A stretch of 64,000 nucleotides of DNA from Selaginella moellendorffii (taxonomy: Eukaryota; Plantae; Lycopodiophyta): positions 2,181,266-2,245,265 of the forward strand of contig NW_003314261.1 in NCBI RefSeq assembly GCF_000143415.4, given 5' to 3'. The number at the start of each line of letters is the position of its first letter. The first letter of the stretch is position 1. The position numbers were made by a program, and so were the translations under genes. Shown here piece after piece: positions 5,301-28,243 of this stretch. Below the pieces are notes generated by a model, which was not told where the DNA came from, did no database searches, and was given only the letters and a program-made list of their open reading frames with translations.

Positions 5301-5635
5301 AAGCCAGCCCTAGAGGAAGAAACCAATGAAAAGTCCAAAGAGAAAGATGAAGTGTTGCCAGGGAAGAAAGGGTGTGTGCAGGGATTCCCAATTTGAAACT
5401 TACTGTTATGAATGTGACTATGGGTGTTAAAAGTTATTTGTCGGCTAATCCATTTGGATATTCTTTCTTTACTACTACGATAGTAGGAAGTATTGGTTCC
5501 CTTTTCTTGTTTAAGTGTTAGTAAATTAGGCTTAACATCTGTACTTAGCCAGATGAAGATAAGGTAGGAACTTCTATATATTTCTTCTTGAGCATACTTG
5601 GCCTAACTTTTAATTCTTTTAATTCCTTATCTATA

Positions 5636-5659
5636 AAGCTCTATTTTGTTAAAGTGGGA
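5636..5659 (+). repeat. Left terminal inverted repeat
   Basis: aagctctattttgttaaagtggga, the reverse complement of 19502-19525 with one mismatch. Confidence 0.9.
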
Positions 5660-6065
5660 ATTGTCATTATCCCACTTGTAAAATAAGGTTTCTAAACCTT
5701 TATATAGTATATAAATATAACAAAATTTAACTACATTGAGGCACATGCCATTTTATTTTAAACAAGGAAATGTCTACTCAATCACTTCTCCTCTCCCTGC
5801 CACTGCTTCACCTCTCTCTTCTCCTTGTCATCGTCATCCAATTTCTTTCCATCCTTTTAATATTGGCTCAGTTGCTCCGAGTCTAGGTGGAATTCAATCT
5901 TTACTTTCCCCTTATTAATAAAACAACTTCGTAGACTTCCAATAACATGCTGTAACACTTCTAGTATAATGCAAATCCTCTCAAAGAATTGTCTTTTAAT
6001 ATTAATATAATGGCATGGAACCCCATGCCATAATAAGTTACATTTTTAAATAAATACATGCCATC

Positions 6066-6928
6066 TCAGACTATTATTTTTTGCCTCCAACGCTTATACA
6101 ATAATCTTGGAATTTCATCACTCTCCACACTATCAGGATTTAAACCCAATAGTAATGCCATCTCTTCTCTAATACGTCCACGCTCATGTTCAGTGGTCGA
6201 AGAACCCATCCGGTTGAGCAGATTATGGAGATGCGGATAGTGCTTGGCTAGACAATATACATGCCATAAATGATGACTGGTGTCTGTCCGATCAAATGGC
6301 TTCTGATATACCATTCCATCTGCCATTTGGTTGATTTCTGCAGCCACCTCCTGGACTGGCCGGTTCTCTATCACCATCGCTCCAAGCCGTTTTGCAAGGT
6401 CCCCCAGAACATACGGTTTCTTCTCCCTAGTTTCCATACTGCAAGAGATGGGGTGCACTGCATATGTGTGCGTGTTCGCTGCAGTTTTAATCGGCGAGTC
6501 ATCGATGATGAGGATTTCACTTGACCTAGCAGTCCGGTTCATCACTACAGCCTCTGGCTTGATGAAGATGGGCTTGCTACCCCTCACATGGACCATAGTC
6601 AAGCAATCCTCCTGCGTTAGGAGAAAGTCAAATGGTAATATTACTCGCGTCTGATTGTGCATCATCTGTAGCAATGTTAATGCATTGTGGTGCATCATGG
6701 ATGTCCAAACTCCCAATTGCAAATTGAACCCGGCCCTCTGTTTTAAGTGTCGCATGGTCATTATTAGATCCCACAGTTTCTCCCGTGTGATTAATGTGAA
6801 TCTGTCTCTTTTGACCAACTTGCAACCGTAGGCTTTGGAGGGTGCAGTGACATTCGAGGACGAGCCATGCTCATGGGAGAAAAGGACACCGTTCAGATCA
6901 AAAACGATACAGTACCTTTGCCGTGACT
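6066..6928 (-). CDS. FCP1/NIF-like HAD phosphatase domain (last exon of the cargo gene)
   Basis: HAD motifs in order: CIVFDLNGVL, LGVWTSM, FLLTQEDC, PIFIKP, ILIIDDSPIK. Confidence 0.85.
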
Positions 6929-9900
6929 CTGAAATGAAATGCGTCAGCATAAAAAATGGTACAAGTCAATTTTACCATCTACAATATTAGCGAATGGTGC
7001 TCCCGATGGTCGTTGAGAGGGTTTTAGTCGAGGAAACGTGAAGGGCGGAAATACTCTCCTCTGCAATGTGGGGTCAATCGCATCCGATGGCATGTGGGCA
7101 CATGCCATTTCAGCTGTAGACTCTGGTACAATTGGCTCAACAGTGGCATGGGGTGGTTCCGATGGCGTGTGATCACACGCCATTTCAGCTGGTGCCTCCG
7201 TTGGCAAAGTGGACATGACCGAACATGCAGCAGGGGTGGTGTAGGGAGGTTCCAACGGCGCGTAGTCAGACGATTGGGCACACGTTGAGTCCGTTGGAAA
7301 TGAGGATACGACCGGCTTGGCAGCTGGGGCGGCCTCATGCAAGTCCAATGGCGCCTGGTCACCGTCAGTTGGATACGTGGACAAGATTGACTCAGTGGTA
7401 TGGGCAGCATCAAGTGGAGCGTGGTCAGCTTGCTTGGTGTTGATATGGATAGTAGCCTCCACCAACTCTGATGACTCTTGCAGGCAAGTAGAGTCCACTG
7501 GCGGATCCATATGCATGTCCAAATATCTCCCTTCGATTGAGATGGTATCCTCCCTACTGGCTACTAAAAACAAACTCATTAGCACATTGAATCGACTATA
7601 CTGTATTTACCATCAACTGCTATTGAGGAACTAGGACCGATATCACTTGGGCGCACTGTTGATTCTGAAGGATTGGACATACGTTTTGACCCTTGCTTGG
7701 CACTATCCTTCCTCGACACTAAAGGCTAGAGTTTGTATCTTAATTCAACTACTTACCATTTGCTCTACAACCTACATGGACAATGTTAGAAATGGTAAAA
7801 GGTTAGGAATGGATGTACTATTATTTACCTGATGGTTTGTCTTGTATGACCTTCCTCCGCTGCTCTTTGGCCACCTCAGGCTGGCCATCGTCGTCATCAT
7901 CATCGTCGTTGTTATTGTGATCGTCACCATTGTGAGGACCATCCAAGTCCTCTTCGTCCTCCTCTTCTTCGTCCTCCTCTTCGTCCTTCTGCTCTTCCTG
8001 CTCATTATCTTTCTCTGGCTCCTCATCCCCCTCCTGCATTTCTTCCATAGGCTGCTCAGGTTGGATGGCTTGTTCTTCCAGGACCATCTTGGGAAAATCA
8101 TCTGGCCGAGTCTCCATCTCAAAATACAAGACATCCATAGCCTGTTTTAGTGCGTGACCTAGGACCGTATCCTCACTCGACTGTCTTAACATGGTTTTTG
8201 CATGTTCTTGCACCCTTCGAAGACGACGAGATGAGAAAAACATGGCCCTGACTTGAAAAGCATCCCTCATCCATTGTACCTCTCCATTGAGATTGGGGAA
8301 GGGGAGTCCGCCATAGGAATCTGAGTCAGGAGGTGGTGACTGGCTGCTTTCACTCAACCCTTGATCTGCAATGAATGGCATGAGCACACACGCCATAACC
8401 GCGAGGCATTACCTATCATCTTTTCGTTGCCCTTCTTCCTTTTCGAATCAAACGCCTCTGATCCCGACGACTGTCCAACGTGCTTTCGCTTTTTATGACC
8501 ACTGTCAGTTTGAGCTTGGCTGGTGCTTGCCTGTTTTGCCTTTGAAGAAGTGTCTCCTGCAAGGAATGGCATGAGACCACACGCCATTGCAAATATAATT
8601 TGTACCTCCTTTTTTCCTATTGCTTGTCTGTTTGTCCTTCTTCGACGCGCCACTAGTGTGCTTTTCAGTCCTCGTTTCTGAATATTCACAACGATCTATA
8701 ATCAAAATGGCGTGAGGCCTCATGTGACCTTACCTTGTGCAGGTTGTGAGCTCGGCCCAACATGGGTATCTTCAACAGTAGCTGTTAACGCCGTTTCAGC
8801 ATCTGGGGGTGGCCATACTCCTGCATACAGAGCTTGTGAGATAACATTTAAACTTAAAGTGCGTACTCACTAGGTTCGTAGAGAAGATACTGTTTTTCTT
8901 TGCCAACTGTAATTATATGCTCCATTGAAGTCACCTCTTCAATGGAGTTTGTCACCGCAACACACGGGACACCCTTGAGTAGTGCGGCTCGAAAGAATAG
9001 TCCGCCGCAGTTGTACTCGACAACACATTTGCCCTTGGAGTCGGAAGCAGGTGACCCACCCGCTATTGCATTGAAGACCCAGCTGAGCATTTCCCATGCT
9101 GCACCTAGAGCTTTCTTTGGATTCGAAAGCTCCATAGCCGTCTTTAGTTCCTCAGGCACGGGTAAATTGACCTCCCTCAGATCAATTTGATCGGCCTTGT
9201 CGAACGAAGCTGGGAAGTCACTCCAGTCCCACTCTGCTGCAGGACCAATAACAAGGGCGAGTGTGAAGATGCGGACATTCGTTGGTATCTTCTTCTTAGC
9301 CATTATCCCATGGATTTCCCACATCTCCTTGCCTTTCAACCGAGCCTTCACCTTGTTCAAGGCCTTCCAGAACTTGTGATAGGATTCGGAGTCGTAGATC
9401 ATATAGTGGACTGAAGATTCCACCTCCGCAAGTCCCACCATTAAGTCAATGATGGAGCTGACTTCGTCTGCATGAGTGATCTCCTCGTTTGTGAAGTCCA
9501 TCACACAAAAGATGTTCTTGACCTGCTCATCTCCGCGGGAAACGATGCTCCTCCACCTTTGATCCTCATCCGAATTCACGTATACCCGGTAAGGTTCTCG
9601 ATAGGCCTCTGCTGCGGGGTCGAGCTGTTTCTGAAGCCGGCGGTCAACATCCCTCTTAATGAAATTTAGATACTGATCCAACTTCTCAGCTTTACTTTTC
9701 GTGGCATCCCGCAGCAGATCGATGAACTTGGGGTCCCCCTTCACGTACTCGTCGATGTCTTCATTTGACAACTCCAGCGCTTCCATCATCTCTTGCGTGG
9801 TGTTGATGCTCACCCTCTCCACGGCCACTTGCTCAAAGATCCAATCCTTCAATAGCGCACGAACTCTCAGAGTCGTGCACAAGTCCTCGTATGTCACAAT

Positions 9901-11668
9901 ATGGCCGGGAGTCATTTTGGTCTTGTTGAAGACTACCTCACCACGTAGAAGAGCATTAGCCACTGTCAGAAGGTCGTCGTCGTCTAGAGACAGCGAGAAA
10001 CGCAAGGCGTTGAGCTTCAAATCATTGGGCTTCCGGCCGTCCTCCACACCCATTGAGTTTAGCAACTCCCCGTCATGGTACCTCCTCAGCACATCTACCC
10101 ATTTGTCAAAAACAACTTTTGTCGCGAGTTGAATGTTATGGATGCTGAGTGTGTCATGACCCCCAGTGTTTTCGAGAGAAGACTCGAGAATTCCTGCAAT
10201 GGAAATGGCATGAGGCCACATGCTATGCAACATGCAACGAGGCTTACCTGCCAGGCGCTAGTTGCTAGTGCACGTCCTTGTCCTGGTTTTTGTGGCTTCT
10301 TCAGTTGAACCCAGAGCTTCCGTGTTCGTGCCAATATCTCTTGCAGACCCGATTTGTAGCACGTTTCTTACTTGACATTCTGCGTGTGGGAGATGTATAT
10401 GATAGATCGAAGGGGCGAGTTGCCTTTTATCAGGCGGACAACTCTTGTCTTGAAGACTTTCTTCACCTCCTCGCCCACCATAATATCCACAACTATCTCT
10501 TGCATCGCCAAGCTAGAATGCTGCCCGGAGACGGCATAGAATTGGATGTTCTGATCATCCAACACCTTCCTATTGATCAAGTCTGGAAACCTCATCTCGC
10601 CCTTCATTGTTCGGTAGTAAGGGATCACGTCTGCAATGTCGGGTGTTACTGGACTTGCCAGCATCTTCTGCTTCAGTTTCTCCACCCACTCATCAAATAC
10701 TAGCCTGTGGTTGTATTTGCTTTGGATGTCGATACGGCTCACGTCGATTGTATATACTTTGTTGGAATAGTAACAAGTACTATTATCTGCGATGATTTTT
10801 GCTGCCTCTTCTTGCTCTTTCTGCTCTTTGTGGCTCTTCTTTTTGGTGGGTGTAGTGTTCGAACCCGAGGCAATGGCATCACCGAGTAGCTTCTTTTTTG
10901 GAGCAGGAGAGTCGGACGTCGGCTTGAGCTTGACCACCCTTTTCTGCTTTGGGGTAGTTTCCAGATCGACCCCCTTCCCCTTCACTTCGCAAACTGGAGG
11001 CACTCTCAACGGCTCAATGTTGGAATATAGTTTTTGAACATCGCTGTAGGTGAGGTCCGTGGATTCCATGTGATCTTCATAGACCCGCAGCGTCTTTGAA
11101 ATTGTGGGCCTCCTGGACAACCTCTCCCTAGCTCCCTCTAGGAATTCCTCATAGCCGCTGCCCCCCTCCGGGAAGCCGCTAGGATGTGCAAGGTGGATCT
11201 TGAAGGCGGACGCTGTCTCTACCACAAGTGCCAGTCCATATTCTTGCATGGAACTGCATGGAGTGTCTGACACTTGGATGAGGATCCCCATGCATTCTTT
11301 TCTCCCACCATCTGTGTTGTACAGCCTCAGATCCTCGCCTTCCATCCCAAAAGTCCAACTGGTGAGCTCCTCCCCCTTCTCTACATCCACATTGACAGTG
11401 GCTGGAAGAAGAACGCAATTCCTCGCCTGTTCAGAAATGCACAATAATTAGAGCTAACAGATGAAAAGCTAGCAGCTAGAAATAACGTAAGGCCACACGC
11501 CATTCACCACTGCATCAGATGTCTTGAGGCTGCATCCTAAGATGGCATGAGGCTACACGCCATCTGTAACCGGACTGCACTCGAGAGCCCAATCGGTGCA
11601 TGCCAATGTTGTTACTGAATAGCATGTGGCCTCATGCCATTTTCTACTTGGCCTAAAAGACTTACCAT
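6066..11668 (-). pseudogene. Multi-exon cargo gene: ParB-like + degenerate DNA MTase-like + acidic linker + FCP1/NIF HAD phosphatase
   Basis: ORFs 10368-11444, 10095-10334, 8854-10233, 8354-8689, 7821-8396, 6944-7585 and 6066-6950 join through GT-AG introns (11427-11665, 10194-10247, 8821-8870, 8678-8733, 8557-8605, 8366-8412, 6929-6975). Splicing at 7560-7828 is unresolved. Motifs: YAVSGQHS; VVEYNCGGLFFRAALLKG; IVFDLNGVL/VWTS/IIDDSPIK. One in-frame TAA (10368-10370) and a probable frameshift near 10160. Confidence 0.7.
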
Positions 11669-12330
11669 TTGAAGCCGAATGGAGGCGTGACAATCGAGGC
11701 CGAACTCGCTGGCGAATGTGCACTATGTGTGCAGCGGGAGTCGTAGCAGGAAGGCTACTCTGCCACTTGCAGTTGGAGAGTGTCACTGAAATCTCCCGAG
11801 ACGCCAACTGGGCTGCGTGTGGGTGTCCGGAGTGGTGCGGCGGAGTTGGCGGCGAAGTTACAAACTGGGTGTGTCTTGAAGTGGACGCCGATGCACACGA
11901 GCGCGATGCGAGGCGCGAGTGTGATGCAAGCGCTAGTGGACGCCGATGCACACGAGAAACCTATAGAGAAGGTAGATGAGCGCGAATGTGAGCGTGATCG
12001 CGATGCGAGCGCGAGTGTGCAAGCATGAGTACGATGCAAAACCTAACCTCACACGCACAAAATGTCACGACGGTTGGTAATCCCGCAACGTCATCATTCC
12101 TCGGACTTGGGCACCACCATTAATTTCTGGATCGCCACGCACATGCATGCACGTGAAATCCAAAAGAAATCCGCAACATCATCATTCCTTGGACTACATG
12201 CACACGAAATCCAAAAGAAAGATCATGATTGGGATATCATTTAATACCCTCGCTATATTTATACCATGCATGATTGGATATTCCAAAGCATCTTGTATTT
12301 CCAAAAATGCCAGATGTTTAGCTAAATAAA

Positions 12331-14260
12331 GAATGGTATACAATGTCCTTCTTGATGACTCTGCAAAGAAGCATCTTGATCGGACACCACATGAGACCAC
12401 ATGAGCCTTACAATGTTTCAGGGGCATTTGCCATAGATCCGACCGTTATTTTGCTCCAAGATTCTACAATTTGGTGTGCATTGACCTTTCCATCGACACT
12501 GCAAAGGGACATCACAATCAGATGCGAGATCACAAGAAACCAACTTCACTAACTCTGGTTTCACCAAGATCTACGTAAGGAGTTATGAAATGAAAGGACC
12601 CTTTCTATTGAAATGTGTTTATGGTCCTGACATATCAAAGGATTTTGCATCAAGTTCTGTATTTGCATGTTTATCAAGCTACTGAATTGCTAAACCCTAA
12701 ACCCTAAACCCTAAACATCTGGCAAATACTGCGTGAAGTAAGATGCCCTTTCTGGGCAAATGCTGTAAGAGGCAGATGCCGAGCAGTTACACGGCGAATA
12801 ATCTTGGCGCGGATCGCTGATATGGCATGGCAAAGTTTGAATCACTGACATGGCACAGCTGGATCGAGGCAAGGACATGATGTGACAAAGTTCAACGTCC
12901 GACAGCAAAGTCTAAAAGCTACTCAGTTTGAAATTTGTCAGAGGAATTATAAGATCTGGTTTGTCAGAGGATTTGATGTGATGTTCAAGCGTGTGGGCTC
13001 ATGCAATTTTGATCCCAAAAAATGCACCAAAAAATGCTCGGCGTCATTTGGCGTTATCTCTTGAATGGTGTGGGGCCGCATGCCATTTTCAGGGGCACAT
13101 AGGAGTATAGTCCTAGAATATTCTGACATGCGCGAGATTTTTTTGAGTTTTCTGGAGATCCAACCGTTAGATTGCAACTAGATTTTACAGAATGGTATAC
13201 AATGTCTTTTTTGATGACCCTGCAAAGAAGCATTTCTATCGGACACCACATGAGACCACACGAGCCTTACAATGTTTCAAGGGCATTTGCCATAGATCCG
13301 ACCGTTATTTTGCTCCAAGATTTTACAGTTTGGTGTGCATTGACTTTTCCATCGACACTGAAAAGGGACATCACAATCAGATGCGGGATCACAAGAAACT
13401 AACTTCACTAACTCTGGTTTCACCAAGATCTACGTAAAGAGTTATGAAATGAAAGGACCCTCTTTATTGAAATGTGTTTATGGTCCTAAGGGCATTGTGA
13501 CATATCAAAGGATTTTGCATCAAGTTCTATATTTGCATGTTTATCAAGCTACTGAATTGCTAAACCCTAAACCCTAAACCCTAAACATATGGCAAATGTT
13601 GCGTGAAGAAAGATGCCCTTTATGGGCAAATGCTGTAAGAGGCAGATGCCGAGCAGATATATCTCAGGCTAGCGAAGGGGACAAACGAAAGCTAGCTATA
13701 AACATGACAGGATGCAAATAGATTACTAGGCTGGTCCTGCGAAAATCAAAAACCATAATTGAAAACATTGAAAATGCAAAAAGAAAGGTTTATAATATTT
13801 TTGAATTTTAAGCAACCAAAGGAATGTAAGTAGGGCATGTGTTTGTAAGTTTAAAAATGCCTCAACCACTTAAATTCCCAAGAAAATAAAGCTGTTTCTA
13901 TTTTTAGCACAGGTAAACTTTATAGCGTGTGGGCTCATGCAATTTTGAACCCAAAAATGCACCAAAAAATGCTCAACTAGCATTATTCTTTGAATGGCAT
14001 GTGGCCTTATATTGCCATAAATGGACGTACACACACAGCATAATTATTCCTTTACACGGCGAATAATCTTGGCATGGATTGCTGACACGGCATGGCAAAG
14101 TTCGAATCACTAACATGGCATAGCTGGATCGAGGCAAGGACATGATGTGACAAAGTTCAACCTCCGACAGCAAAGTCTAGAAGCTACTCAGTTTGAAATT
14201 TGTCAGAGGAATCATAAGATCTGGTTTGTCAGAGGATTTGATGTGACGTTCAAGCGTGTG
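12331..14260 (+). repeat. Shuffled direct repeats between the two divergent transposon genes
   Basis: Block A 12331-12786 ~ 13190-13656; block B 12787-12995 ~ 14052-14260; block C 12988-13076 ~ 13924-14005. Confidence 0.9.
12690..12716 (+). repeat. Short (CCCTAAA)n plant telomeric/telo-box tract; second copy at 13560-13586
   Basis: ctaaaccctaaaccctaaaccctaaac in both copies of block A. Confidence 0.9.
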
Positions 14261-14880
14261 TTATTTTTGAATTCTCGAACTCATTCCTAAGTCTATCATT
14301 TTTGTGCGCCGTGTTCTTGGTTCCGCTGAGCGTAGTGAGCACTGCTTGTGTAAGCGGCGTTGTGAGCTGTGGTTTATGCGTCTACAAGCGGTTGCGGCAT
14401 TGCGAGCGCCATTGCAAGCGGCAGTTTATGCGAGTGGCAGTTTGTGCGAGCGGCGCTACGAGCAGTTGCGGTGTTGCGAACGGCGCTACGAGTAGTTGCG
14501 GTGTTGCGAGCAACACTGTCTTTGGTGTGGCTACCGCTTCCTCTTGATATTCAGCACTTGTGCTTCCTGGTATGTTCACCATGGAATGGCTTAGGACCAC
14601 ATTTAGAAATGGCATGAGGCCACATGCCATCTTGGGCCCTTGCAATTTCATTGCTAGCATATTGTCATATATGTTTTTACTTGCCTGCAGTTGTGTGTAT
14701 ATCAAGATGGCATGAGGCCTCATGCCAATTTTGTGAATGCGAAATTTCACGTGGGTGTCAATAGCATGTTTGAATAATGGCATGTGGCCTCATGCTATTG
14801 AGGTTGTTTGGTATGTTATGATTTAGGCCATTCTCCAATCATTTTTTGTATGGTCTTAACTTCTTTTCTGCACTTTCAGA

Positions 14881-17800
14881 ATGGCCTTCAGGGTTGGGGA
14901 AAAGGTTTACATTTTGAATGGTGGGAAGAGAGTTGCAAAAGGGACCTTTGTGTCTATGGATCGGAACTTTGTTATACACTGTCAAAGGCTTGGGGAAGGC
15001 AATGCTGCTGTATCAGTAGAGACTGTCTTCGATGGGAATGTGGTCGCTATTGAACGAGGAGAGATGGTCGTCAGGGTAAATGTTGTTGTTGCCTTGAAAA
15101 ATCTTCAGAAGAAAGCAGATGTTGGGGACAGCGCAAGTGCGACGCATGTTCCCTCCGTGGATCTTAAGAACCGTGCTACATGGATTCAGGCAAAGGTTTT
15201 TCTAAACAACCCCGAGGGGGAGGTGGTAGCTGAGGGCTTAGCCACAGTTGTCAATCCAAGAGATGCGGTTGCTAATCAAGAATTGGGCTGGGATGATATT
15301 GGAGTTGCGATTTTAGAGGTTGTTGACACAGAAGAAAACAGTTTGACTATTGGAAGTATTGTGCAGTGGAAATTGAGGCACTTAGTGTTTGAGAATGTGA
15401 AGGATTCACAATCAAACACCACTACAACTGATGACAGAACATCTCTTCATGGGAAAAGAAAGTACACCTTCCTAAAGCGTAACCAAAGGGATCTGAGCAA
15501 CGAACCAAAAAGGCAGAAAATGGCGATGGAGGTTCGAATGGTCTCGACAGTTGCTTGTTGCAAGAGGAGGTGCTATCAACATGCTGATTGGGATGCTATT
15601 GAAGAGGAGAGAGCAAGATACAAGACATTGTCCTGGAAGGCAGCTCGCAATTTTGTGTATGAGGCATTACGGTCATCTGTTGATGATTCAGAATATCAGG
15701 TGGGGGGCATGGTCTTCCAGAGGGGTTTGGTCTGCATGAAGGCATGGAGAATCATTTATGGAGTCCCTCAAACCACATTCTATAGAATCAAAACTGAGTT
15801 CGAGGAACAAAGGGTTCAACAGGCAGTCCATGGGAACGACGGTATGCACAAAACCAGGGGTCATGTTGTATATGGAGAGGCAATCTTCAAGAGGTTTGTC
15901 GAGACATGTAGCGAGCAGCAACCACATAAAACCCGCCTCTTGGAAGATGGAACACGAGACACCCAACGAGTTCTCCCTTCCATGTATACCAAGGGGGCCA
16001 TATTGGAAGATGTGAATCGGGAACTCCAGAGTAATGGCTACAGGAAGCTGAGCCAATCTAGATTTAGTAGATTGTGGAGCAACAAGTTCAGGGATGTGAG
16101 TATAGGAAAGTACTCCAGCTTTTCAAAGTGTGACGAGTGCACTGCTATCAAAATGGCTTTGTCGAAGAATTCTTGCAACGCTCAAGAGTGAGAGACGTTG
16201 GTTAGAAGGCGGCTCGACCACAACATCGAGCAGAGAAGCTGCAAGACTGCATATTATCATAACAGGATTCTCTCCATGGAGAGACCTAACTCTTACCTCT
16301 GCATCATCCACGACAAAATGGACCAGAAAAAGACGTGCTTACCTCGACTCAATCCTGCCCCCAAGGCAATCTCTTCATCCATGCAGCTGCCTGTGTCTCT
16401 ATTTGGCATAATCGCTCATGGGCATGGTGCCCAGAACTATGGGAACTTCTTTGTACCTCTATGGGGTGGCGGGGGTGCAAACATGATGATTGCGTCCCTA
16501 GCAAAACACTTAAGGTCTCTGCAAAGTGTGCAGACTGAGCTGAACAGCTAACCCTTGCATAAGGCCCTTGTCGATCGAACCCCATACAGGGTTCAGCTGG
16601 AGGAGGAGCAAAGGCTTGCAGTATCGCGTGGGGCCCCATGCCATCCCAGTGAATATGTTGGCCGTCAGATTGTAGGGTTATCACGTGAGGCCTCATGCCA
16701 TTCCGACGAGGCTGGTCGCCCGGTGAATGCACAGCCTCATCCAAACGAAGCAGAATCTCAAAGAAGTTCTTGCGGCCGATGTGGCCTTCCACCCCATCTT
16801 CTGCTCCAAACAGACAATGCTGGCAGTGAGAACAAAAACATGTACGTCTTCACGTACTTGGCGATGCTTGTTGCCAAAGGCATATTTGAAACGGTTACAC
16901 TTGGCTTTCTCATGGTTGGGCACACTCATGAAGACGTCGATGCCATGTTCAGTCACCTGGCAGAGTCCCTCCGGCGATCCAATGTCCTCACCCTCCCACA
17001 ACTCTACGATGAATTCCAAAATTGCATCAAAGGCACTGTTGAAGCTGCACTTGTGACAGAGGTTCCAGACTTTAAGGGGTTTGTAAGAGGCTACATCAGG
17101 GACGGATCCGAAACGCTGATTGGCCACTCCAAGCCTCTTCAGTTTCATTTCAGCATGCGTGACGGTGCTCCAGTGATGAGGTACAAGATGAGAGAATGGG
17201 ACACAGTGTGGCTGCCAGTGGATGGCATTGAACTCTTCAAGAGAGATCCCATAACTGGGGAACCTATGATTCCTCAGGGTTCCCCACGGCCGATGCACCC
17301 GGATGGACTCAAAGACCAGGAAAGTATAGTGGCCGGGATTAGACAGCATATTGCCTTCTGGAAGAGGGGGTTGGTGTTTGGTGGAGAATCTTATTTTAAG
17401 AGGTGCAAGCCTTTGCTCGAATACTGGGAGAAGATTATATCTGCTATCCAAAATGGGCCGGTTGTATATGAAGAATTGGAAGAGTCCTTTTGGCCAGAAC
17501 CCAGAGCACCAGATAGTAGTGGAACAATGTCCTCTGGAAATGCAGTGACAGATAACGATGTTGAGGATCACTATTGTGGGCCGAGGAACAAGAAGCCGGA
17601 TTCAGCATTCAATCCAGTACAGGTCTGCAAAGGAATGGTCGTGCTTGTCAGACCCAGTAATAAAAAACAAATGATATGGGTGGGGCACTGCATCACTGAT
17701 GCAGAGGAGGACGCGGAAACTAACTCCTTCAATGTAACTGTGGAGTGGTTCAAGCCAAGTTCCGGATATACGAAGGATTGCCTAGAAAAGAGATGGGTGC

Positions 17801-18022
17801 TGAATCCAAGGGATCCCAGTATGAGCATATCGGTGGATAATGTTGTGCATGGTTGGATGCGGAAGCAGAGTGCCACCATCACCTTGCCAGACCATGCAAG
17901 AGATGCAACAAGAGCATTCATAACCCGGGTTCAAGGTGAGATTCATTAATATTCCTTTATTAAGTTTCTAATGTATTTTATTTCAAGGTGAACAATCCGA
18001 ATCTGAATCAGAGGAGGCGTGA
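14881..18022 (+). pseudogene. Sola1-like (DUF7869-type) DDD transposase, ~1030 aa, with two in-frame stops
   Basis: ORFs 14881-16191, 16198-16551 and 16555-17949 share one frame, broken only by TGA 16189 and TAA 16549. Motifs FSKCDEC, IIHDKMDQKK, LQTDNAGSENKN and FLMVGHTHEDVDAMFS. Probable short last exon GEQSESESEEA* after an intron at ~17936-17987. Confidence 0.85.
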
Positions 18023-19501
18023 TGGCATGTGGCCTTACGCCATTCCTAGGTGAGATGATACAAATAACAAGTATAAATTCTTAGTTGTTCTAGCAAATCT
18101 TACTTAAAGTTCAAGGTGAACAAGCCGAATATGAATTCATCGGATTGTTATAACAAATTGCAAGGTGATGGCATGAGGCAATACGCCATTTGAGAGTGGT
18201 AGCCATTCCTATATGAGGTGAGTGAAATATTTATTAGAAATACCTCATTCAATTGTGCACTTCTAAGTTTTGGTCCACTCAGTACTGTTTGCATGTTTCT
18301 ATTTTAATTCTTTCTCTAAAATGTTATTTAGCATGTGGCTTCATGCCATTGCTCTCCACAATCATGCATTGAATTTTTCTATCCTTGCATAATACTTCTC
18401 CATATATATAGCATGTGTGCACATGTGATATGGTTCATTAGGCCTGATATAGTGTGTGAGGTAAAACAAAGATGATGTGACATATGCATTTACCAATCAC
18501 ACGTGCATAAATCTAATAATATGGCGTGTGGCCCATATTAATGGCACATAAACCCATATTATGGGCTTACGTGCTTTATGTACCATCATTCCCTTGCAGT
18601 GTGTGTGTTGGTTTCCTTTTATAACACAACGAACTCCATATTTTAGGGTGAAGAGCGTTCTCATGGCAAGCACAAAATCTGTAAGTGAGGTAGAAAAGGA
18701 GACGGAGAAGGAGATAGGTGAAGATGTAGAATATATAAGTCTTCCAAACTCCCCGTACTATACTCCAGGTGATCATTTTTCTGAACAAACGGCAACATTA
18801 ACAACTATCGAGAACGCCCCAGTAACGTCAGAGACAACAATCCAAAGCAAAACAACTGACCCGGAGAAGGATGATAGTACCGCTGAGAGTACAAAAAGGA
18901 GGTGTCCACTAGCACTTAGGCTTATAATGGTGTGTGCCGTCATGCCATTTAGAGAAATAGAATGGCATGTGCCCTCAGGCCTTTTACTAAATCACCTTTG
19001 AAAGAAATGCAAGCCTCTATGTCATAAAAAAAAGGTACTAGAGAAATTCCTTAATAATATGAATGTTATTTAGTTTCATGAAAATACACTAAGGGTCAAA
19101 TGAGTTAAATGACTTCTCCAGACTAGCAATGCCTCTTGCTACACCTTCACAATTAGATTCGTTAGAAAAAGATAACATTGAATAATATCTAAATGTTCTC
19201 ACCATTAAGTTATATGTTTGGCTAATAGGAATGACGTTCATCTTGGAAAGCTCACCAGATGCTCAATGAACAAACAAATAGTGTGTGCGCACATGCCATC
19301 GCTCTTCTTTAGCTTCAGATTCGACTTGTTCACCTTGACAATGAGATTTATTATACAACCAGATGGACTCAGTCTGGACACAAAGTCACCGCGCTAGTCA
19401 CCATGCCCCAGATATGTCTAGCCCCTGGACAAAAAACATATAATTTCACGTCATTTTCAAATACTTGAAAATTTGTACCTAGTCCCATTTTACTGAATAA
19501 A

Positions 19502-19525
19502 TCCCACTTTAACGAAATAGAGCTT
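19502..19525 (-). repeat. Right terminal inverted repeat
   Basis: tcccactttaacgaaatagagctt followed by TATA. Confidence 0.9.
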
Positions 19526-19644
19526 TATAGTTTTTTGTTCAACTGGAGGCTTCAACTCTAGAGGAGGTTCCATCTTCGCCTTGGTTCTTTTATGCCCTGC
19601 TTATATCCTTTGCTAGAACTGAGGAAAAGGCTTTGATACCAAAT

Positions 19645-20454
19645 TGTAAACCACAAATTTTTCCTTTCTAATTTGCTAGTTTACTTTGTCCATCCAACCA
19701 CCACTGCCTTGGCCTTAATTAAATTCTCTTGCCAAAGTTTCTACCTATGGTACTAACTCCCATTTGGTCCTATTTGACTTTAGCTACTCACTGCACAAGC
19801 AACAAAGTGTTAGCCATCCATTCATGAATTCCCAAATTCTTTCCCAACCCCCCTCCTCGGGTTAGACTGGATTTAAGGTTTGACTACCCTTCATACAGGC
19901 ATAAGTAGCTAAGCACACGAAACCTCCAGATTCCTAATATCCCTTGGCATAATAAGACTTGATCATAGGACCCTTTAAATCTCAAGCCTTGGGTGCAACA
20001 CTTGCTTCAAAACACCAGGGGGAAACACCATGGCCTAGCAGCTTAGTATAAATACCCTTACTCCCACACTTCTATCCTAAAATGAAGGCACAAGCCCCTA
20101 GGAAAGGTGAGGACTAATGAGTTGCAAGGTACTCAAGTGGGGCACCACTCCACATGAGTCGGGAGCATTGCAATTGGTTTCCTTCAAAATTAGTTTTTGG
20201 ACCTCACTATCTCTACTATTCTTCTGCCCGCCCCACCCGGCCCACCCCCCCCCCCCCCCCCTATCAGATGAATGCTTTGAGCTTTCATTCCACAACCTAT
20301 ATTAGTATTTGGACTCGGTCTTAGACTCGATCTCGAACCTGACCTTGGACTCATTTCTAGACTCGATCTTAGACTTAGTCTTATCCAATACCATTCTAGT
20401 TGTGGTTCTCGGGATCATTTAACCTATGACACTTCAAGGAATTGGTTCCTTACC
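19645..20454 (-). mobile_element. LTR of a decayed LTR retrotransposon, with adjacent PBS
   Basis: Begins TGTAAACCAC, preceded by GATACCA (reverse complement of PBS TGGTATC). Homologous to 20926-21122, 26741-27923 and, inverted, 28244-29352. Confidence 0.75.
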
Positions 20455-22149
20455 ACCTATAAAAGAAGTTCAATACCTATATTGAATATCTCTTTTTAAT
20501 TCTATGATTTGTTGACTATGTCTCCAAGGGCATCCCCCCACTTAGTGGTGTGCTTAAGTAAGCCTATTTAGTTAAGAGTTTATAACAATGGGATACAAGT
20601 GGCTCTATACCCTCGAGAAGTATTTCACCTTTCCCAACATATCAAATAAGTCCTTAATTCTTGATAAAGGGTACTTGTTTTTCTTAAATGTTCAATTGAG
20701 CCTTGGACGACCGAACCTCTCCACTAAACTTCTGTTTGGAAGTTTCCTTATTAGAGTTGTCTTCGTGCAAGGATTCCTCATCCATAACTTCTTGTTTGAC
20801 TAAAGGCTCAAGCTCCAAAAGAGGTTCTATCTCTGCCTTGGTTCTTTTATACCCTACCTTAGCCATCTCTCAGTATTCCACCTCTATCCTTCACTAGAAC
20901 TAAGGAAAAGGCTCTAATACCATATTGTAAGCCATAAATTTTTCCTTTCCAATTTACTAGCTTACCTCGTTTATCCAAACACCACGGCCTTGGCCTTAGT
21001 TAAGTTCCCTCGCTAAGGTTCTTGCCCATTGTACCATCTCCTACTTGGTCCTATTTGGTTTCAGCAACTCACTACATGAACAACAAAGCATTAGCCATCC
21101 ATCCACAGCTTCTCAAATTCTTTAGGACTCGAACCTAACCTCCATAGAATACATCTATGGATTCAACATCCTCCTAGGGAGTCCAATGAAGCTAACTATG
21201 CTTGGCTAACCCATAGTAATTAGTTTACCTTCGGCACGCCTTCGAGTCCCAATATGTGACAATGCTCATTTTCACAAATGGATACTTTAATTGAACTTTA
21301 CATAAATACATAAAGTTTTACCTTGCCAAAATTCCTCCAATAAATCTCGCACATTCGCCAGGTTCTCTTTCGGTTCCCATATTGCTTTGTAATGTGGAAA
21401 TCCTTTCTATTTCATATGGAACTCCCTCACTTCATGTCCTTGTCACTTGCTCTTATGTGCATTGAGAATGGCCTCAACTTTGTATTCCTCTTCCTCTTGG
21501 ATAACCTTAAGTAAATGTCTTATTTGGTCCTTGCGAAGCGGATCCTCAAAGTAAGTTCATATGGAATATAGAGTGTATCTTCCCCATCTCTTGAGAAAGT
21601 CAGAGGTGGTAAGCCATTTTACCAATTCGAAGCTTAATCTTATAAGGCCTCACAAACCTACTTAAGGAACTTAAGATTAGTTTATTTCTAAAAATATATA
21701 CATTTTACCTTTGGGTCAACTTCTAGCTGATCCCACTTGGTAACCTTAGGTTCTTAGTGTTCAGCCACACCTTCTCCCCAAGTTCGAACTTTACATCCTG
21801 GCTCTTCTGATTGTAAGACATAAATCCCTAAGCCCTAAAGTGGAGCCAAAAGGGTAATAGCTGAAGCAGAAGCTAAATGAGGGTAACACATTTGGACTAA
21901 AAGCTTTGACTTGGATAGTCAAGAGTGGGAGTGGAACTCCCAACGAAGTGCTCGAGAAATGAGCTCGAAACAAGCAGTAAGTGAGTCTCTAGAAAAAGGA
22001 CATAAAAGGACCAACACATAACACATGGAAGTGTTAAATAGAGTTTGAGAAGGAGTTTGAGATGGAGAGCACGAAGCAAGCAGTAAGTGAGTCTCTAGAA
22101 AAGGGACATAAGAGGACCAATATATAACATGTGGAAGTGTTAAATAGAG

Positions 22150-22795
22150 TTCGAGAAGGAGTTGGAGTCCAAGAAAGAGTCTAAGATGGAGTTTGAGATA
22201 GACCTGAGTGTAAGCTCTTAAGTTTGGACTTCACGGGAAGTCACCCAACCCAATACTATTCAAACCCAAGGACGCTTAACCTTAAGTATCCTAAGACCCT
22301 TAACCAATTGGAAAAAGGGGTGCACTCTTATTCATAGCCCTTTCCCTCTATATTTGAACCCTTATGGATCGCTTCTCGAGTTATTCTCTTTGGTTTCTTA
22401 CATTGAGAAGGAGTCTGAGATGGACCCAAGATGGACCTGAGATAGAGTCTGAGATGGACCCAAGACAAAGTCCAAGATGGAGTCCGAAATGAACCCGAGA
22501 TGCAATCCAAGATAGATCTGAGATGGAGTCTGAGATGACTCCAAGATGGAGTCCAAGATGGAGCCTGAGATGGACCCAAGATGGAGTTCAAGATGGACCC
22601 GAGATGGAGTCCAAGATATACCTAAGATAGCTTCCAAGATGGACTTGAGATGGAGTCTGAGATGGACCCAAGATGGAGTTCGAGTTCAAGATCGAGATTG
22701 AGACTGAGACTGAGGCTAAAACCAAGACCGAGACTGAGATTAAGACCGACTCTGAGACCAAGTCTGAGTCCAAGTCTGAGTCTGAGTCTGAGGGT
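22150..22795 (+). repeat. Degenerate 12-bp/6-bp tandem minisatellite ((C)CRAGATGGAS / GAGWCY)
   Basis: Runs such as gagatggagtctgagatggacccaagatggagtt; similar hexamer arrays at 20310-20382, 27332-27415, 27695-27843 and 28324-28572. Confidence 0.85.
22209..22402 (-). mobile_element. Cassandra solo LTR
   Basis: Close copy of 4325-4518 with TG...CA ends; flanks CTGAG/TTGAG. Confidence 0.88.
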
Positions 22796-23445
22796 AAAAG
22801 CCTAAAGCGTTCGTTTCCTAGACCTTAGGGGGTTTGATGAGCTCCAAAAGTATAGTAGGGGGAGGACTCTAGTGGAGCCAGTTTGGCTAGAAAAAGCTAG
22901 TGTGACCAAGGAAGGCTATACCCATATGGTGGGTGATGATAAAAACACGAAGGAGTCCAAAGCTAGAGTGAATATAGTAAGACAATTAAGGTAGCTTAGT
23001 GAAGTGTTCAAGAGCCAACTCTAGCTCCCCCGGGAAATCAAATGGTCGATGCTCCCAATCCGAGTCATAGTTTAAGACCTTGGGATGACATTTCAAAACA
23101 CTGTGGCCCTACGTAAGCCTCATGAGTACTCTCCCCACCTTTTGCCTTTAAGTGCCCTAGCCATATGGCTGGAGCGAGGTTTTGATGAGTCACGTCAGGT
23201 ATCCACATAGGTAGTGCCACCCACAAAAGGAAGAAGAATAATGCTTTGGTGTAGTGACCAAGAATATGGTTATATGGTGAGGAAGTTCTAGAGGACAATA
23301 AGAGTTAATGGTTGGGCCTTTGGGCCTTGACCCAATAGCAATGTTAATGAGCACTACTGTGGATGAAGAGGGATTTGGTGGGGACGGAAGAAGAGATATT
23401 GGGGAAGGGTGTTCCCTATATCTTTGGGCATCCTAAGGGTTCTAT

Positions 23446-24103
23446 TGTAGTGCATGTGATCATGGGATGAGATTTGGATATATTGTTATTGTGGATCCTT
23501 GGAACCTTGGGGGATAAATAGGGATAAAATAGCCACTAAAGGCTCTCTCATTAAGTAATTGCCCATTTTTTAATTGGCTTAAGGGGAGAGAGATAGAGTG
23601 CGCTACAATTGGTATTAGAGCAAATAGTACAGGTTTGATTCCCATTGATTAGTGGCTACTTAAAAATATAATATACCCTTCAACAAGGTATATTCCTACC
23701 CCTAAATTTAAAATCATACGTATTGAGCATCCATATGTACATCCTTCCTCTTGTGTGGAGTATCCACAGATGAAGGTATCCACCGTGGGGGTACGGGTGG
23801 ATGACTAATTACTTCACATGGAATAATTGATCTACACAATGGAAGGATTTGCGGAAATGGAGGTGTTGGTTCCCTTTGGCTAAATAGGGGTTGTTAGTCA
23901 ATAGTCAATGAGGACATTGACATCTCCGAAGGGGGGGGTGAATGTAGCGCATGTGATTATGGGATGAGATTTAAATATACTATCACCGTGAATCCTTAAA
24001 ACCTTGGGGGATAAATAGGGATAAAATAGCCACTAAAGGCTCTCTCATAAAAAACTACCCCTCTTTCAGTTGGTTTAAGGGGAGAGAGATAGGGTGCGTT
24101 ACA
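23446..24103 (+). mobile_element. Non-coding TRIM (two ~160-bp LTRs)
   Basis: LTRs 23446-23607 and 23943-24103; PBS TGGTATTAGAG at 23610; G-rich PPT before the 3' LTR; flanks TCTAT/CCTAT. Confidence 0.88.
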
Positions 24104-26740
24104 CCTATGGTGTGGTCAAGGGATGACCACTCATGGGTGGATGGTCCAGTCTTTGAGAGATAGGACTGTGATGCACTACTAATATGATAAGGGTGAATGA
24201 ATATGGCCTTAATATAATGGGTTGATATATTGGTAGTACCTTTGGGTGTCAATCATAGGATTGGACTTGGTGGGGATTAAAGAAAGGATATGAGAAAAGG
24301 GTGTTCTCCATATCTCCAAGCATTTTAATGATGCTAAGGGGTGGTTATAGGATGATCATTTATGGACGGATGGTCTAGTTTTTGGGAGATAGGACTGTGG
24401 TGCAAGTGGTATTGGACTACTTATGTGACAAAAGGGAATGGACATGGCCTTAGCATAATAGGTAGATATGTCAATAGTACTTTTGGGTGTTAGTCACGGG
24501 ATTAGATATGTGGAGCACTTGGATCAAGTGCAAAGGCTAAGTGGCATAGATGCCATTCATGAGGCTAGTATGTCCCAAGTTAGAAATAAGATTTATAAAA
24601 ATTGTGAGTGAAATTCTCCTAAGTGGTCAAAAGTGTGGTTAAGTGACTAAAGTAGAATAGAAAATTTAACTACTTACATTGATTTGCATAATAATTTGAC
24701 CTTTGTTGAGCCTATACCAAGGAATCCTTCAGTAGATTCTAAATATTGAGTCTTTCTGCCATAAACGCCTCTACTGTAGATAATTCTCCATGATTCTTGG
24801 CCATATCGAGTTCCACAAAACCTTCAATAGCTCACCTATTGATGACTTCCTTTGGACTCACCTCGATTCTCGAATGTGGTGAATTGTTATAATATATTTC
24901 CGCAAATCCCAAATGACTTACCCAATTGGTCTAGTCTCCAAAGACATAGTATTGCAAATAATCCTTCAACTGCCTATTCACCCTTTCCATTTGTCTATTT
25001 GTTAAGAAGTGTTATTGCCATTAATCTTGATTTAATACCCAATACCTGTCTATAGGTGATAAGCTGTGCTGAATTTCAACTTGATGTGATATTGTTCCAG
25101 GAAAGTTCTCTAAAACCTACTGGTGAAAATTTTATCTCGATCTAAGATAATCTTTTCTGGCCTTCCCCGCACTTGAACCACTTGTTTGAGAATAGCTTCA
25201 CCACACCTTCCGCATCCACTTCTATTGTGGTGGGTATGAAATGTGCCATCTTTAAAAACCAGTCCACCACCATAAATATTGCTTTAAACCCCTCACTTAA
25301 GGGGAGTTCTGTGATGAAGTCTATTATAAGACATTTCCACGAATGATCTAGAATTAAAATGCTTTGTAACAAGCCCCCATCAGCCTTAATCATGGCTTTG
25401 ATCTGCTAACATGTTGGATATGTCTTTATATAGTGTTAGATGTTCTTAGCTATATCTAGCCAGTGATACTTCCTCTTCAATAAGCCCATTATTTTGAGCA
25501 CTCTACTGTGTCCTGCAAAAAGTCCATCATGACATTCTTTTAAGGCTACCTTCCTTAGTTCCCTTTTTGGAACATACACCCTTGTTTGTTTATAATAAAT
25601 GACGCTATTGCATTCTGCATAACCTATTTTCTCTTCTATTGGTAGCTCCCCTCTCTAGTGAGCATCCTGTGCCTCCTGGTTTTTTGGTGACACTTCTTAT
25701 GTTAGATAATTGTTCTCATATGCTATCCGCACATCATCCCAAAAGGTTGTTGTTATGCTGGATATCGCTAACTTCAAGCTTGCTTTTTGACTTAGAGCAT
25801 CTACTATGATTTTCCTCTTCCCAGGTTTACATAAAATCTTGCAATCAAACTCAGCCAAAGCATTGGCCCACCAACCCTGTTTCCCTCTCAGGTCGAGCTG
25901 TGACAAGAAGTTTTTTGTTGCCACATTATCCGTGTAAACTTTGAAGTGTTTCCCAAGGTAGTGTTGCCACTCCTTAAGTGCCTTGACCACCGCAAACAAT
26001 TCCTTCTCGTGAGCAAGCCACTTTTGTTGAGCCTTGTCCAACTTCTTTGAGAAGAACACTACTGGATGGTTGTCTTGCTTCAAAACTGCGCCCAATGCAA
26101 AGTTTGAAGCATCCATTTTTACCTCAAAGTCTTTACCAAAGTCCAATATAGGAGTCTTCCTCAACTTCTTTTTGAGGTGGACTAATGCCACCTCATATTC
26201 TGTTGTACATTCCATCTTCCCTTTTCCCATTTGGTCCGTTAAAACTAGGGTTATTCTCAAATAGTGTTTAATAAACTTTCGATAGTAATTGCATAGCCCC
26301 AAGAATGCCCTTAACTTGTGTATATTCAATAGTTGTTCTCATTCCTGGATCACTTGGACCTTCTTAGGGTCCACCTTGAGCCTGTCCTTGCCCACCACAT
26401 GCCCAAGAAACTTTACCTCTTGTTGAGCAAAGTCATATTTGCTTTCTTTAGGATACAATTGGTATTCCCTTAGTTTCTCAAACACCTTCGTCAAGTGTTC
26501 AACATGCTTATCTAGTGTCTCACTATAGATCAAGATGTCGTCAATGTAAATGACCACGAAGTGATCTAGATAAGGTACAAAAATGTAGTTCATCAGCATC
26601 GAAAACATTGCTGGTGCATTGCATAGCCCAAAGGGCATCACTAGAAACTCAAAACTTCCATACCTTGTCTAACAAGTTATCTTCTTAACATCTTCCTCTG
26701 CTACCCAGATTTGGTAGTATCCTGAACTTAGGTCAATCCG

Positions 26741-27923: not shown

Positions 27924-28243
27924 TTTGTTTGGCTCTATTTGGCTCCATTTTTCTTGCTAATTTTGGCATTAGGATGTTAGATACTCTAAAAATGTTCCTA
28001 CATCTCTTTGTGCTTTTGTCCCTTCGCTCATTGGGTTAAATGTTTAAGAGTCACTCTGTGCTTTGATTCATTTACTCCTTGGTTGCAAGTTTGGGAGTTT
28101 GGCTTTGTACCTTCATTCAGTGGCCTAAGGCCTTGAAACTTAGATTCTACTCCACTATCTTCAGACACAAGGCATGTAACACGTAGCACATGGTAGTTTA
28201 AGTTTCCTTTGTGTTTATCCTATAAATCACAATAAGATCAAGG

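Follow-up and report, generated by a model that had tools for sequence, protein, structure and literature searches.

We analyzed a window of 64,000 nucleotides of land-plant DNA and found that the cargo gene on the minus strand of a DNA transposon is a pseudogene in this copy, because other copies of the element lack its stop and often also its frameshift. We tentatively propose that intact copies would encode a single protein of about 1,640 residues that would bind 22-nt palindromes dispersed through its own element and would likely help to activate or mobilize its own copies.

The transposon and its transposase

The element extends over 13.9 kb (5636-19525) and encloses the cargo gene, which supports the preliminary description of a single cargo gene within a transposon. 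It displays 24-nt terminal inverted repeats, a TATA duplication, a DUF7869 open reading frame and flanks that differ between copies, as in cut-and-paste DNA transposons. The left repeat (5636..5659, plus strand) is identical to the right one (19502..19525, minus strand) at 23 of 24 positions, and TATA stands on either side (5632..5635 and 19526..19529, plus strand). These limits are also seen in other copies: contig 26 of X4 begins at 5636, an X4 loose end has different DNA to the left, and an X11 contig departs from the window sequence past 19525. Among the lengths tried (0, 2, 3, 4 and 5 bp), only a 4-bp duplication rejoined the reading frame interrupted in the flanking DNA. Sola elements have target-site duplications of 4 bp, the length found here on both sides. 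The Sola1 table of PMC3845634 also gives 4 bp for Sola elements. The AWWT target preference given there for the Sola1 group was found at none of three sites, which read TATA here and TGAA and GATG at two other flanks.

The transposase gene (14881..17949, plus strand, about 1,022 codons) lies head-to-head with the cargo gene. It encodes a DDD-type enzyme with a Pfam DUF7869 match (E = 9e-40) that we take, from its motifs, to be Sola-like. In the window copy it is interrupted by two stops (16189 and 16549), at which other copies have sense codons; placing stop 16549 inside an intron was rejected, as other copies read a sense codon there. Three relatives of this transposase (L001-L003) share 41-46% identity with it. 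Our literature search on DUF7869 found no use of that name among the 15 of 52 matches listed, and viral contigs scanned with segments of the transposase, of the HAD part and of the ParB part yielded no relative.

The cargo gene and its lesions

On the minus strand, positions 6066-11447 hold seven sense-strand open reading frames of at least 80 residues, all of which had been joined into one spliced gene in the preliminary description. This proposal appears to hold for the element family and for the chain from 10191 to 6066, but not for the link between the ParB-like and methylase-like parts in the window copy. In the splicing that we infer, with all features on the minus strand, exon 1 is the ATG (11666..11668), and a phase-0 GT-AG intron of 239 nt holding three palindromes (11665-11427) joins it to ARNC, as originally suggested. 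Exon 2 (10248..11426) would encode an N-terminal part, a Lys-rich linker and a predicted ParB/Srx-like (DUF3723-like) domain with the motif SGQH (about 10760-10371). A helical segment begins at the end of this exon and may, by eye, be a helix-turn-helix (HTH). Exon 3 (8871..10193) would extend this helical region and then encode a predicted beta-class amino-methyltransferase-like domain (about 9600-8872), a reading that draws on motif order by eye and an ESM Atlas lead. Exons 4-10 (8820-8734, 8677-8606, 8556-8413, 8365-7829, 7771-7757, 7718-7611 and 7563-6976, thus 6976..8820 as a whole), modeled from sequence with all introns in phase 1, would form an acidic, low-complexity linker rich in Pro, Ser and Thr. 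Exon 11 (6066..6928) holds a NIF/FCP1-type HAD domain (Pfam match at about 6914-6468) and a C-terminal tail up to the stop.

Splicing of eight consecutive GT-AG introns (38-57 nt, each of them in phase 1) would leave a continuous reading frame of 1,245 codons, which runs from position 10191 in the methylase-like exon to KIIV* in the HAD exon (stop at 6066). Both the IVD-ESRQ junction and the stretch 7560-7828 of the earlier proposal lie within this chain, and all the peptides quoted there are present. The splicing is least secure at 7560-7828, where the model requires a 15-nt micro-exon and a 38-nt intron; intron 4 has two candidate acceptors (8696 and 8678), each in frame. Contigs of the one run that we guessed to be RNA were unspliced, and run X24 gave no contigs; neither speaks for or against expression or splicing.

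Two lesions distinguish the window copy. An in-frame TAA (10368..10370, minus strand) splits the reading frames 10368-11447 and 10095-10367, which share one frame with no intron between them. A one-base frameshift then occurs in the helical segment past the ParB-like domain (10156..10157, minus strand), after a phase-0 intron (10247-10194). When the GT-AG introns able to skip both lesions were enumerated, they either used weak sites only or removed part of the ParB/helical region. An intron from 10371 skipping the stop was likewise rejected, given the sense codon of other copies: their contigs read Gln at the stop position in all four runs (a depth of 703,436 of 703,714 in X1). An extra base past 10156 is present in 77 of 77 in X4, 93,425 of 197,781 in X1 and 566 of 26,898 in X2; contig depth was not taken as copy number. 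Fourteen X2 loose ends also carry the extra base, and X20 has no cover there.

Between 5500 and 12000, 97 of the 121 counted differences between X1 and the window are A>G or T>C. By context, the 66 listed transitions comprise 38 CG, 17 CHG and 11 CHH, and listed differences hit 37 cargo codons, with 29 changing or stopping the protein and 8 silent. Some other copies carry further small indels, for example at 7559 in X4, and no intact copy was seen whole.

Domains of the predicted protein

The ParB/sulfiredoxin and beta-class methyltransferase likenesses, both claimed in the preliminary description, found support in ESM Atlas neighbours. For the ParB-like part, these were unnamed (0.97), DUF3723 (0.95-0.96) and ParB_N (0.92). 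The methylase-like part gave unnamed or automatically named clusters at 0.94 and N6_N4_Mtase at 0.89, the latter as a lead only; its best ten named matches all belong to one family or clan, and motif IV before motifs X-I-II fits the beta-class order by eye. The other methods, on the contrary, did not recover either likeness. Searches of Pfam, PHROGs and NCBIfam gave no such family for either part at E up to 1-10, and hhalign was blank for the methylase-like part. We also used custom profiles of 48 phage beta-class methylases and 13 ParB N-termini, taken from 67 motif-bearing ORFs at 120 loci and representing a narrow clade. With the methylase profile, shuffles did equally well in 23 of 40 cases; with the ParB profile they did so in none of 40, but the match covered only 14 columns with a probability of 0.6%, and a control pairing was higher. 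Neither profile thus gave a significant match. Single-sequence AlphaFold models of the ParB-like (pLDDT 32) and methylase-like (pLDDT 41) parts were too poor to use, and a VIA structure search with the methylase-like part gave no Z of at least 5. It is thus from Atlas neighbours, and for the methylase also from motif order, that we infer the two folds.

The catalytic motif of the methylase-like part is eroded, as had been noticed early on: DFTN (9498) replaces the DPPY expected from the (D/N/S)PP(Y/F/W) motif of active beta-class enzymes, and motif I reads EYNCGG (9018). Because DPPY and the motif II acid are lost, this domain probably does not write 4mC or 6mA. ParB clamps load at parS in a CTP-dependent manner, and their CTP-binding arginine patch is GxxRxxA; the ParB-like part reads SGQHSS, without Arg.

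The C-terminal part scores 23.4 bits with Pfam NIF (PF03031), above the cut-off of 21.8 (E = 5.4e-5), in agreement with the FCP1-type HAD domain first described. It shares with NIF/FCP1-type HAD phosphatases the Asp nucleophile, the motif II Thr/Ser, the Lys and the DD (DLNGV, WTS, K, IIDDSP), and differs from the canonical DxDx(T/V) of FCP/SCP in its motif I, where DLNG indeed replaces DxDxT. Since plants and fungi have a NIF subfamily of the DLNG type, the motif need not reflect erosion, and no difference at the DLNG codon is among the 17 of 20 listed for the covering X20 contig. With its nucleophile Asp and its motifs II-IV retained, the HAD domain is the only likely catalytic effector of the cargo protein. 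As a guess, its substrate could be Pol II CTD-like or another nuclear phosphoprotein.

In further searches, tblastn against phages gave only E values of 0.8 or worse, PDB sequence searches gave only noise and word-index homologue searches of the cargo protein gave nothing. HMMER matched the methylase exon to a single entry among 1.84 billion representatives, a 2,573-aa bacterial-type repeat protein, which we judged spurious. With no cargo homologue found in these searches, the predicted triple fusion is known so far from this one element family.

A palindrome confined to the element

A 22-nt palindrome, ATGGCRTG-N6-CAYGCCAT, is dispersed through the element in 24 copies, where 0.4 are expected, between 6010 and 19299 (starts at 6010, 7087, 7162, 8375, 8566, 8707, 10205, 11482, 11542, 11619, 13065, 13922, 14609, 14707, 14777, 16623, 16680, 18022, 18168, 18328, 18408, 18927, 18962 and 19278). 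None occurs in the other 50,140 nt of the window, and the same repeat was recovered blind as family D6. The array is absent from the preliminary description. Most sites fall in introns and spacers: 20 of 24 are non-coding (p = 5e-5) and seven of the nine within the cargo gene are intronic (p = 1e-5), with a consensus derived from these same sites and a coding/non-coding split resting on the exon model. Seven stand at the right end, five upstream of the transposase and one near the left end.

L003, whose transposase is 45% identical, carries 10 copies of a different palindrome at similar positions, none of them in the transposase ORF, and each element lacks the palindrome of the other. No repeated palindrome was found in L001 and L002 (4.3 and 2.5 kb, mostly coding); each of the three loci is too short to show a cargo gene. 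The predicted cargo protein is a likely ligand of the 22-nt palindrome.

Possible function of the cargo protein

Because the stops and the frameshift are absent from other copies, the window gene can be regarded as a dead accessory gene with intact relatives. In these, the predicted ParB-like/HTH module of the single protein would bind the palindromes and thereby mark the element's own copies, likely helping to switch them on or mobilize them, and the methylase-like domain would serve as a DNA-contacting or scaffolding part. Such a working mode would be analogous to that of VANC of the Arabidopsis VANDAL elements, achieved with unrelated parts. A more elaborate scheme, to which we give rather little credence, is a ParB/parS-like system that loads on the intronic palindromes, spreads and delivers the FCP1-type phosphatase, with the dead methylase as reader or scaffold, and so resets Pol II or chromatin phosphorylation to escape silencing.

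One would also wonder whether it is the transposase, or a host factor, that binds the palindromes as it would subterminal repeats, the cargo protein acting elsewhere or being a passenger. The cluster of seven at the right end and the five upstream of the transposase would suit this idea, as would L003, whose palindromes flank its transposase on a 3-kb contig with no cargo gene visible; transposases can moreover activate cognate copies, according to the accessible text of a 2026 preprint (10.64898/2026.08.24.746577). We nevertheless consider it unlikely, for the palindromes spread through the interior, with nine in the cargo gene and one near the left end, and their motif is unrelated to the terminal inverted repeats. 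Much fainter still, and the least probable of all, is a role in RNA or an origin as scars of intron birth, that is, hairpins or duplicated intron units near 3' splice sites. Three palindromes do end 9-11 nt ahead of the AG, introns 2, 5 and 6 have common 3' ends, and introns 5 and 6 fold better than shuffles (z of -2.5 and -1.7); however, introns 2 and 4 fold no better (z of -0.1 and -0.6), any palindrome folds, and 13 of the 24 lie outside both genes, in both transcription orientations.

Other alternatives concern the protein itself. The phosphatase could be a late-captured host exon, expressed from a separate or alternative transcript or idle, the working protein being of the known ParB plus methylase-like type. 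With all downstream introns in phase 1, skipping or adding an exon would leave the frame intact; about 640 codons of low-complexity linker precede the HAD exon, motif I is DLNG and not DxDxT, intron 10 offers an in-frame ATG for the HAD reading frame, and the join was not seen in RNA. Against this stand the canonical sites, 68% AT and right phase of intron 10, the lack of space for a promoter between exons 10 and 11, the conservation of HAD motifs II-IV, and the position of exon 11 inside the terminal inverted repeats, where other copies cover it in all four runs. On balance this alternative seems unlikely to us, about as much so as binding of the palindromes by the transposase or a host factor. 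It is also conceivable that the methylase-like domain, despite its deviant motif, still works as an amino-methyltransferase and methylates the palindrome, which contains CATG/CGTG and GGCC. For the Ectocarpus relative described below, 4mC or 6mA is the predicted product. The window copy is decayed, and single residues, for instance the Asn of VAVTN or EYNC, may be Asp elsewhere in the family; only 40 of 198 differences are listed by the read tables, none of them in 8872-9600. Yet DPPY could be reached from DFTN only by changing four of nine bases, two of these changes being transversions, far above the roughly 2%, mainly transition-type divergence of the window copy, and we therefore hold an active enzyme very unlikely.

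Relation to known systems

A parallel can be drawn with Sola1-1_Ec32 of Ectocarpus, a giant Sola-type element whose accessory protein, encoded opposite to the transposase strand, combines ParB-like and N4C/N6A methyltransferase-type domains and has been suggested to bind and modify the element that encodes it, with 4mC or 6mA as predicted products (PMC12477816). The element described here likewise is a giant DNA transposon with an opposite-strand accessory gene, and the likeness of the two proteins is one of description. The brown-algal protein differs in its length (1,104 against about 1,640 residues) and host, and the accessible text of that paper mentions no phosphatase domain and does not call the methylase eroded; the word palindrome is absent from its main text. 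In the red alga Bostrychia, the PAG2/PAG3 genes of Plavaka elements provide a ParB-like accessory protein beside inverted-repeat arrays, the ParB likeness coming only from weak HHpred hits, and the element also encodes an N6-adenine methylase domain (10.1101/2025.02.11.637652). There, however, the fusion partner is a 2OG oxygenase for ParB and SET for the methylase, the two fusions being encoded by separate genes, the transposase is of EnSpm/Plavaka type, and the arrays are tandem where ours are dispersed intronic sites. In the accessible text, the algal ParB-type accessory genes are proposed to have, by analogy, a role of the same kind as VANC-type proteins.

VANC21 of Arabidopsis VANDAL21 is likewise an element-encoded accessory protein with element-specific short motifs in introns, spacers and ends that turn over between families, and both binding and demethylation were shown for it (PMC5735166). 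It belongs to a Mutator-type element, its motif is 9 nt long and non-palindromic, and the protein is unrelated; binding or demethylation by the cargo protein would be a prediction by analogy. Phage ParB-Tls loci also encode fusions of ParB and a beta-class methyltransferase (PMC4738411), with the ParB-like domain N-terminal to the beta-order amino-methyltransferase as here. The 13 that we recovered differ in their intact PPY and compact size (about 415 aa), with no detectable similarity to the cargo protein.

The preliminary description knew of no characterised transposon protein with this triple fusion. The ParB plus methylase pair is already published for algae (PMC12477816); new here are the phosphatase-type domain, the eroded methylase and the land-plant host. 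Our literature search found no transposon ParB protein with an FCP1-type domain, with the Ectocarpus and bioRxiv supplements as places that may hold related architectures, and no report joining DUF3723 with ParB. The accessible texts of PMC9033089, PMC13519894 and 10.1101/2021.02.12.428880 hold nothing on the cargo gene. If the phosphatase-type domain belongs to the protein and is active, the effector would be protein dephosphorylation instead of DNA modification, which the literature search did not find described. One protein fragment and one 22-nt palindrome make up a defined candidate pair, in a land plant that carries many close relatives of this copy.

Palindromes confined to the element

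A blind repeat search returned a family of 20 copies restricted to 6008-19300. With the consensus ATGGCRTG-N6-CAYGCCAT and up to three mismatches, 24 copies are found in the element and 0 in the other 50,140 nt of the window, while 30 Markov simulations gave 0.4 on average and 2 at most, the consensus being derived from the same sites as those counted. The preliminary description of the element had made no mention of these palindromes. According to our splice model, 20 of the 24 are non-coding. Seven of the nine within the cargo gene (minus strand, 11668-6066) are intronic, introns making up 12% of its length, and five of its ten introns hold at least one. A 75-nt internal duplication in exon 10 (7083-7198) places two palindromes in coding sequence. 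Two others (16623 and 16680) sit within a transposase insert (16552-16790) that exceeds its counterpart in the related locus L003 in length and may hide an in-frame intron.

Transposases 41-46% identical to that of the element are encoded at three metagenome loci (L001-L003), each too short to reveal a cargo gene. In L003 a different palindrome occurs 10 times: eight copies precede the transposase ORF and two follow it (features at 1-352, 671-692 and 2833-2977). This palindrome is absent from the window element, and that of the window is absent from L003; no such repeated palindrome was found in L001 or L002. Upstream of its transposase, L003 shows a tandem array of its own palindrome with a period of about 47 nt, and further palindromes are seen in a probable intron just past the point where the ORF breaks off.

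The cargo gene and its lesions

Seven ORFs had been proposed to form one spliced cargo gene encoding a ParB-like domain, a degenerate beta-class methyltransferase and an FCP1-type phosphatase. All seven, with the peptides quoted from them, are present in the window, and ATG is joined in phase to ARNC via a predicted first intron at 11665-11427. In the splice model derived from the sequence, 1,245 codons stay open between 10191 and 6066 once eight GT-AG introns of 38-57 nt, all of phase 1, are removed; the AT content is 57-70% in seven of these eight introns versus 51% in exons. In this model the single-gene proposal holds for the start and for this chain. It fails, in the window copy, at the in-frame link from the ParB-like to the methylase-like part, which is broken by a TAA at 10368-10370 and, beyond 40 more codons and the phase-0 intron at 10247-10194, by a one-base shift near 10156. 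The intron at 7719-7756 is unusually short (38 nt); other copies may carry a length variant of it, judging from loose ends at 7749 in the public sequencing runs X1 and X2.

In contigs from public runs, which represent other copies of the element, the stop is replaced by a Gln codon (4/4 runs) and an extra base is present at 10156 (77/77 depth in X4, 47% in X1, 2% of the indel row in X2, with a further 14 X2 loose ends carrying it). We therefore regard the stop and the frameshift as lesions of the window copy. Relative to the window, X1 shows A>G or T>C in 97 of 121 differences; 55 of the 66 differences listed lie in CG or CHG context, and 29 of the 37 cargo codons touched are changed at the protein level. 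The window copy has decayed by cytosine deamination, and the cargo gene is a real feature that is broken in it. The intact cargo protein of the family would have about 1,639 residues; no whole intact copy was seen among the public-run contigs, and some other copies carry further small indels.

Predicted domains of the cargo protein

ESM Atlas neighbours of segment 10790-10371 score 0.97 (unnamed eukaryotic), 0.95-0.96 (DUF3723) and 0.92 (ParB_N); the tool itself gives 1 in 100 as the rate at which shuffled proteins attain 0.95. Those of segment 9600-8872 reach 0.94 with no common Pfam family; a neighbour scoring 0.89, 63% of whose members carry N6_N4_Mtase, is a lead only. The beta-class motif order can be discerned there by eye, as a strand ending in DFTN and later NPKK, VVEYNCGG and VAV. 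Pfam, PHROGs, NCBIfam and custom phage profiles confirmed neither domain, homologue searches gave no support, and two single-sequence structure models were blank or unusable. We consider the ParB-like assignment very probable and the methylase-like one probable, in part because the same layout has already been published. The stop and the frameshift both fall within a helical stretch behind the ParB-like domain; on visual inspection this stretch might represent its HTH.

Between DPPY and DFTN lie four base changes, two of them transversions, so this erosion is older than the decay of the window copy; individual residues of motifs I and II may yet differ in the family, since the differences listed are 40 of 198. 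The last cargo exon gives a Pfam NIF match slightly over the cut-off, and its HAD domain retains the first Asp and motifs II-IV, motif I reading DLNGV.

Proposed role and alternatives

A 21.5-kb Sola1 element of Ectocarpus encodes, on the strand opposite its transposase, a 1,104-aa protein that combines ParB-like and N4C/N6A methyltransferase parts, and similar proteins are cited for green and red algae (PMC12477816, accessible part). In Bostrychia, ParB accessory genes adjoin inverted-repeat arrays, and self-binding was proposed (10.1101/2025.02.11.637652, excerpt). The ParB and methyltransferase core is therefore known in print, as a proposal. Of the triple fusion, for which the preliminary description knew of no characterised transposon protein, only the phosphatase appears new: our literature search, which took in a minority of subscription papers, found neither an FCP1-type domain in such a transposon ParB protein nor a lycophyte case of such an accessory protein.

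A dimeric ParB-HTH protein would suit a spaced palindrome, as established for ParB/parS. The cargo protein, encoded by the element, is predicted to pair with element-specific sites; its methylase-like domain would probably be no writer of DNA methylation, and the HAD domain would be its remaining candidate catalyst. We put forward this combined reading, an element-encoded protein with its own sites whose binding, substrate and outcome we infer, as a tentative one with a little less than an even chance. VANC motifs occur in introns, spacers and ends (PMC5735166, accessible part), and the palindromes of the element are distributed likewise.

The palindromes may instead be sites of the transposase or of a host factor, which seems unlikely. 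To an origin of the palindromes at the RNA level or through intron birth we give the least credence. Hardly more probable is a methylase-like domain active despite its deviant motif. A phosphatase exon that is separate or idle is as unlikely as transposase or host-factor sites.

Ends, transposase and surroundings of the element

Terminal inverted repeats of 24 nt (5636-5659 and 19502-19525; 23/24 identical), each adjoining TATA, delimit an element of 13,890 bp. Contigs of other copies diverge from the window sequence exactly at the ends of the element, X4 at 5635/5636 and X11 behind 19525. When five lengths of target-site duplication were compared, the interrupted flanking reading frame was restored with 4 bp alone. 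The transposon has inserted into an older repeat, which has a short open frame. The DUF7869 transposase gene lies on the plus strand at 14881-17949 (Pfam E 9e-40), and its two stops in the window copy are sense codons in all three runs covering them. We take the element to be Sola-like, because of its motifs and of the 4-bp duplication. The AWWT target preference of Sola1 (PMC3845634, accessible part) is seen at 0/3 target sites of the element family.

The region 31,000-64,000 holds compact eukaryotic host genes, including DnaJ and a K+ transporter (Pfam) and RACK1, from which the element is separate. Going by this gene content, the host would be a land plant with short introns and probably a lycophyte. 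Sequence resembling LTR retrotransposons, in a decayed state, occupies 19604-29400, with an RT-RNase H fragment at 25697-26338 and repeats of 12-nt period. On the 3' side of the transposase, a plus-strand stop-to-stop frame of 149 codons (18552-19001), surrounded by palindromes, is possibly a third small gene; a Pfam search of it gave no match, and other copies have an additional base at 18891 and additional sequence at 18951. The spacer between the two genes (12327-14260) is made of internal duplications 94-96% identical (12327-12626/13186-13485, 12628-12789/13498-13659 and 12787-12995/14052-14260), and plant telomere-like (AAACCCT)n runs occur at 12692 and 13562, in each duplication unit.
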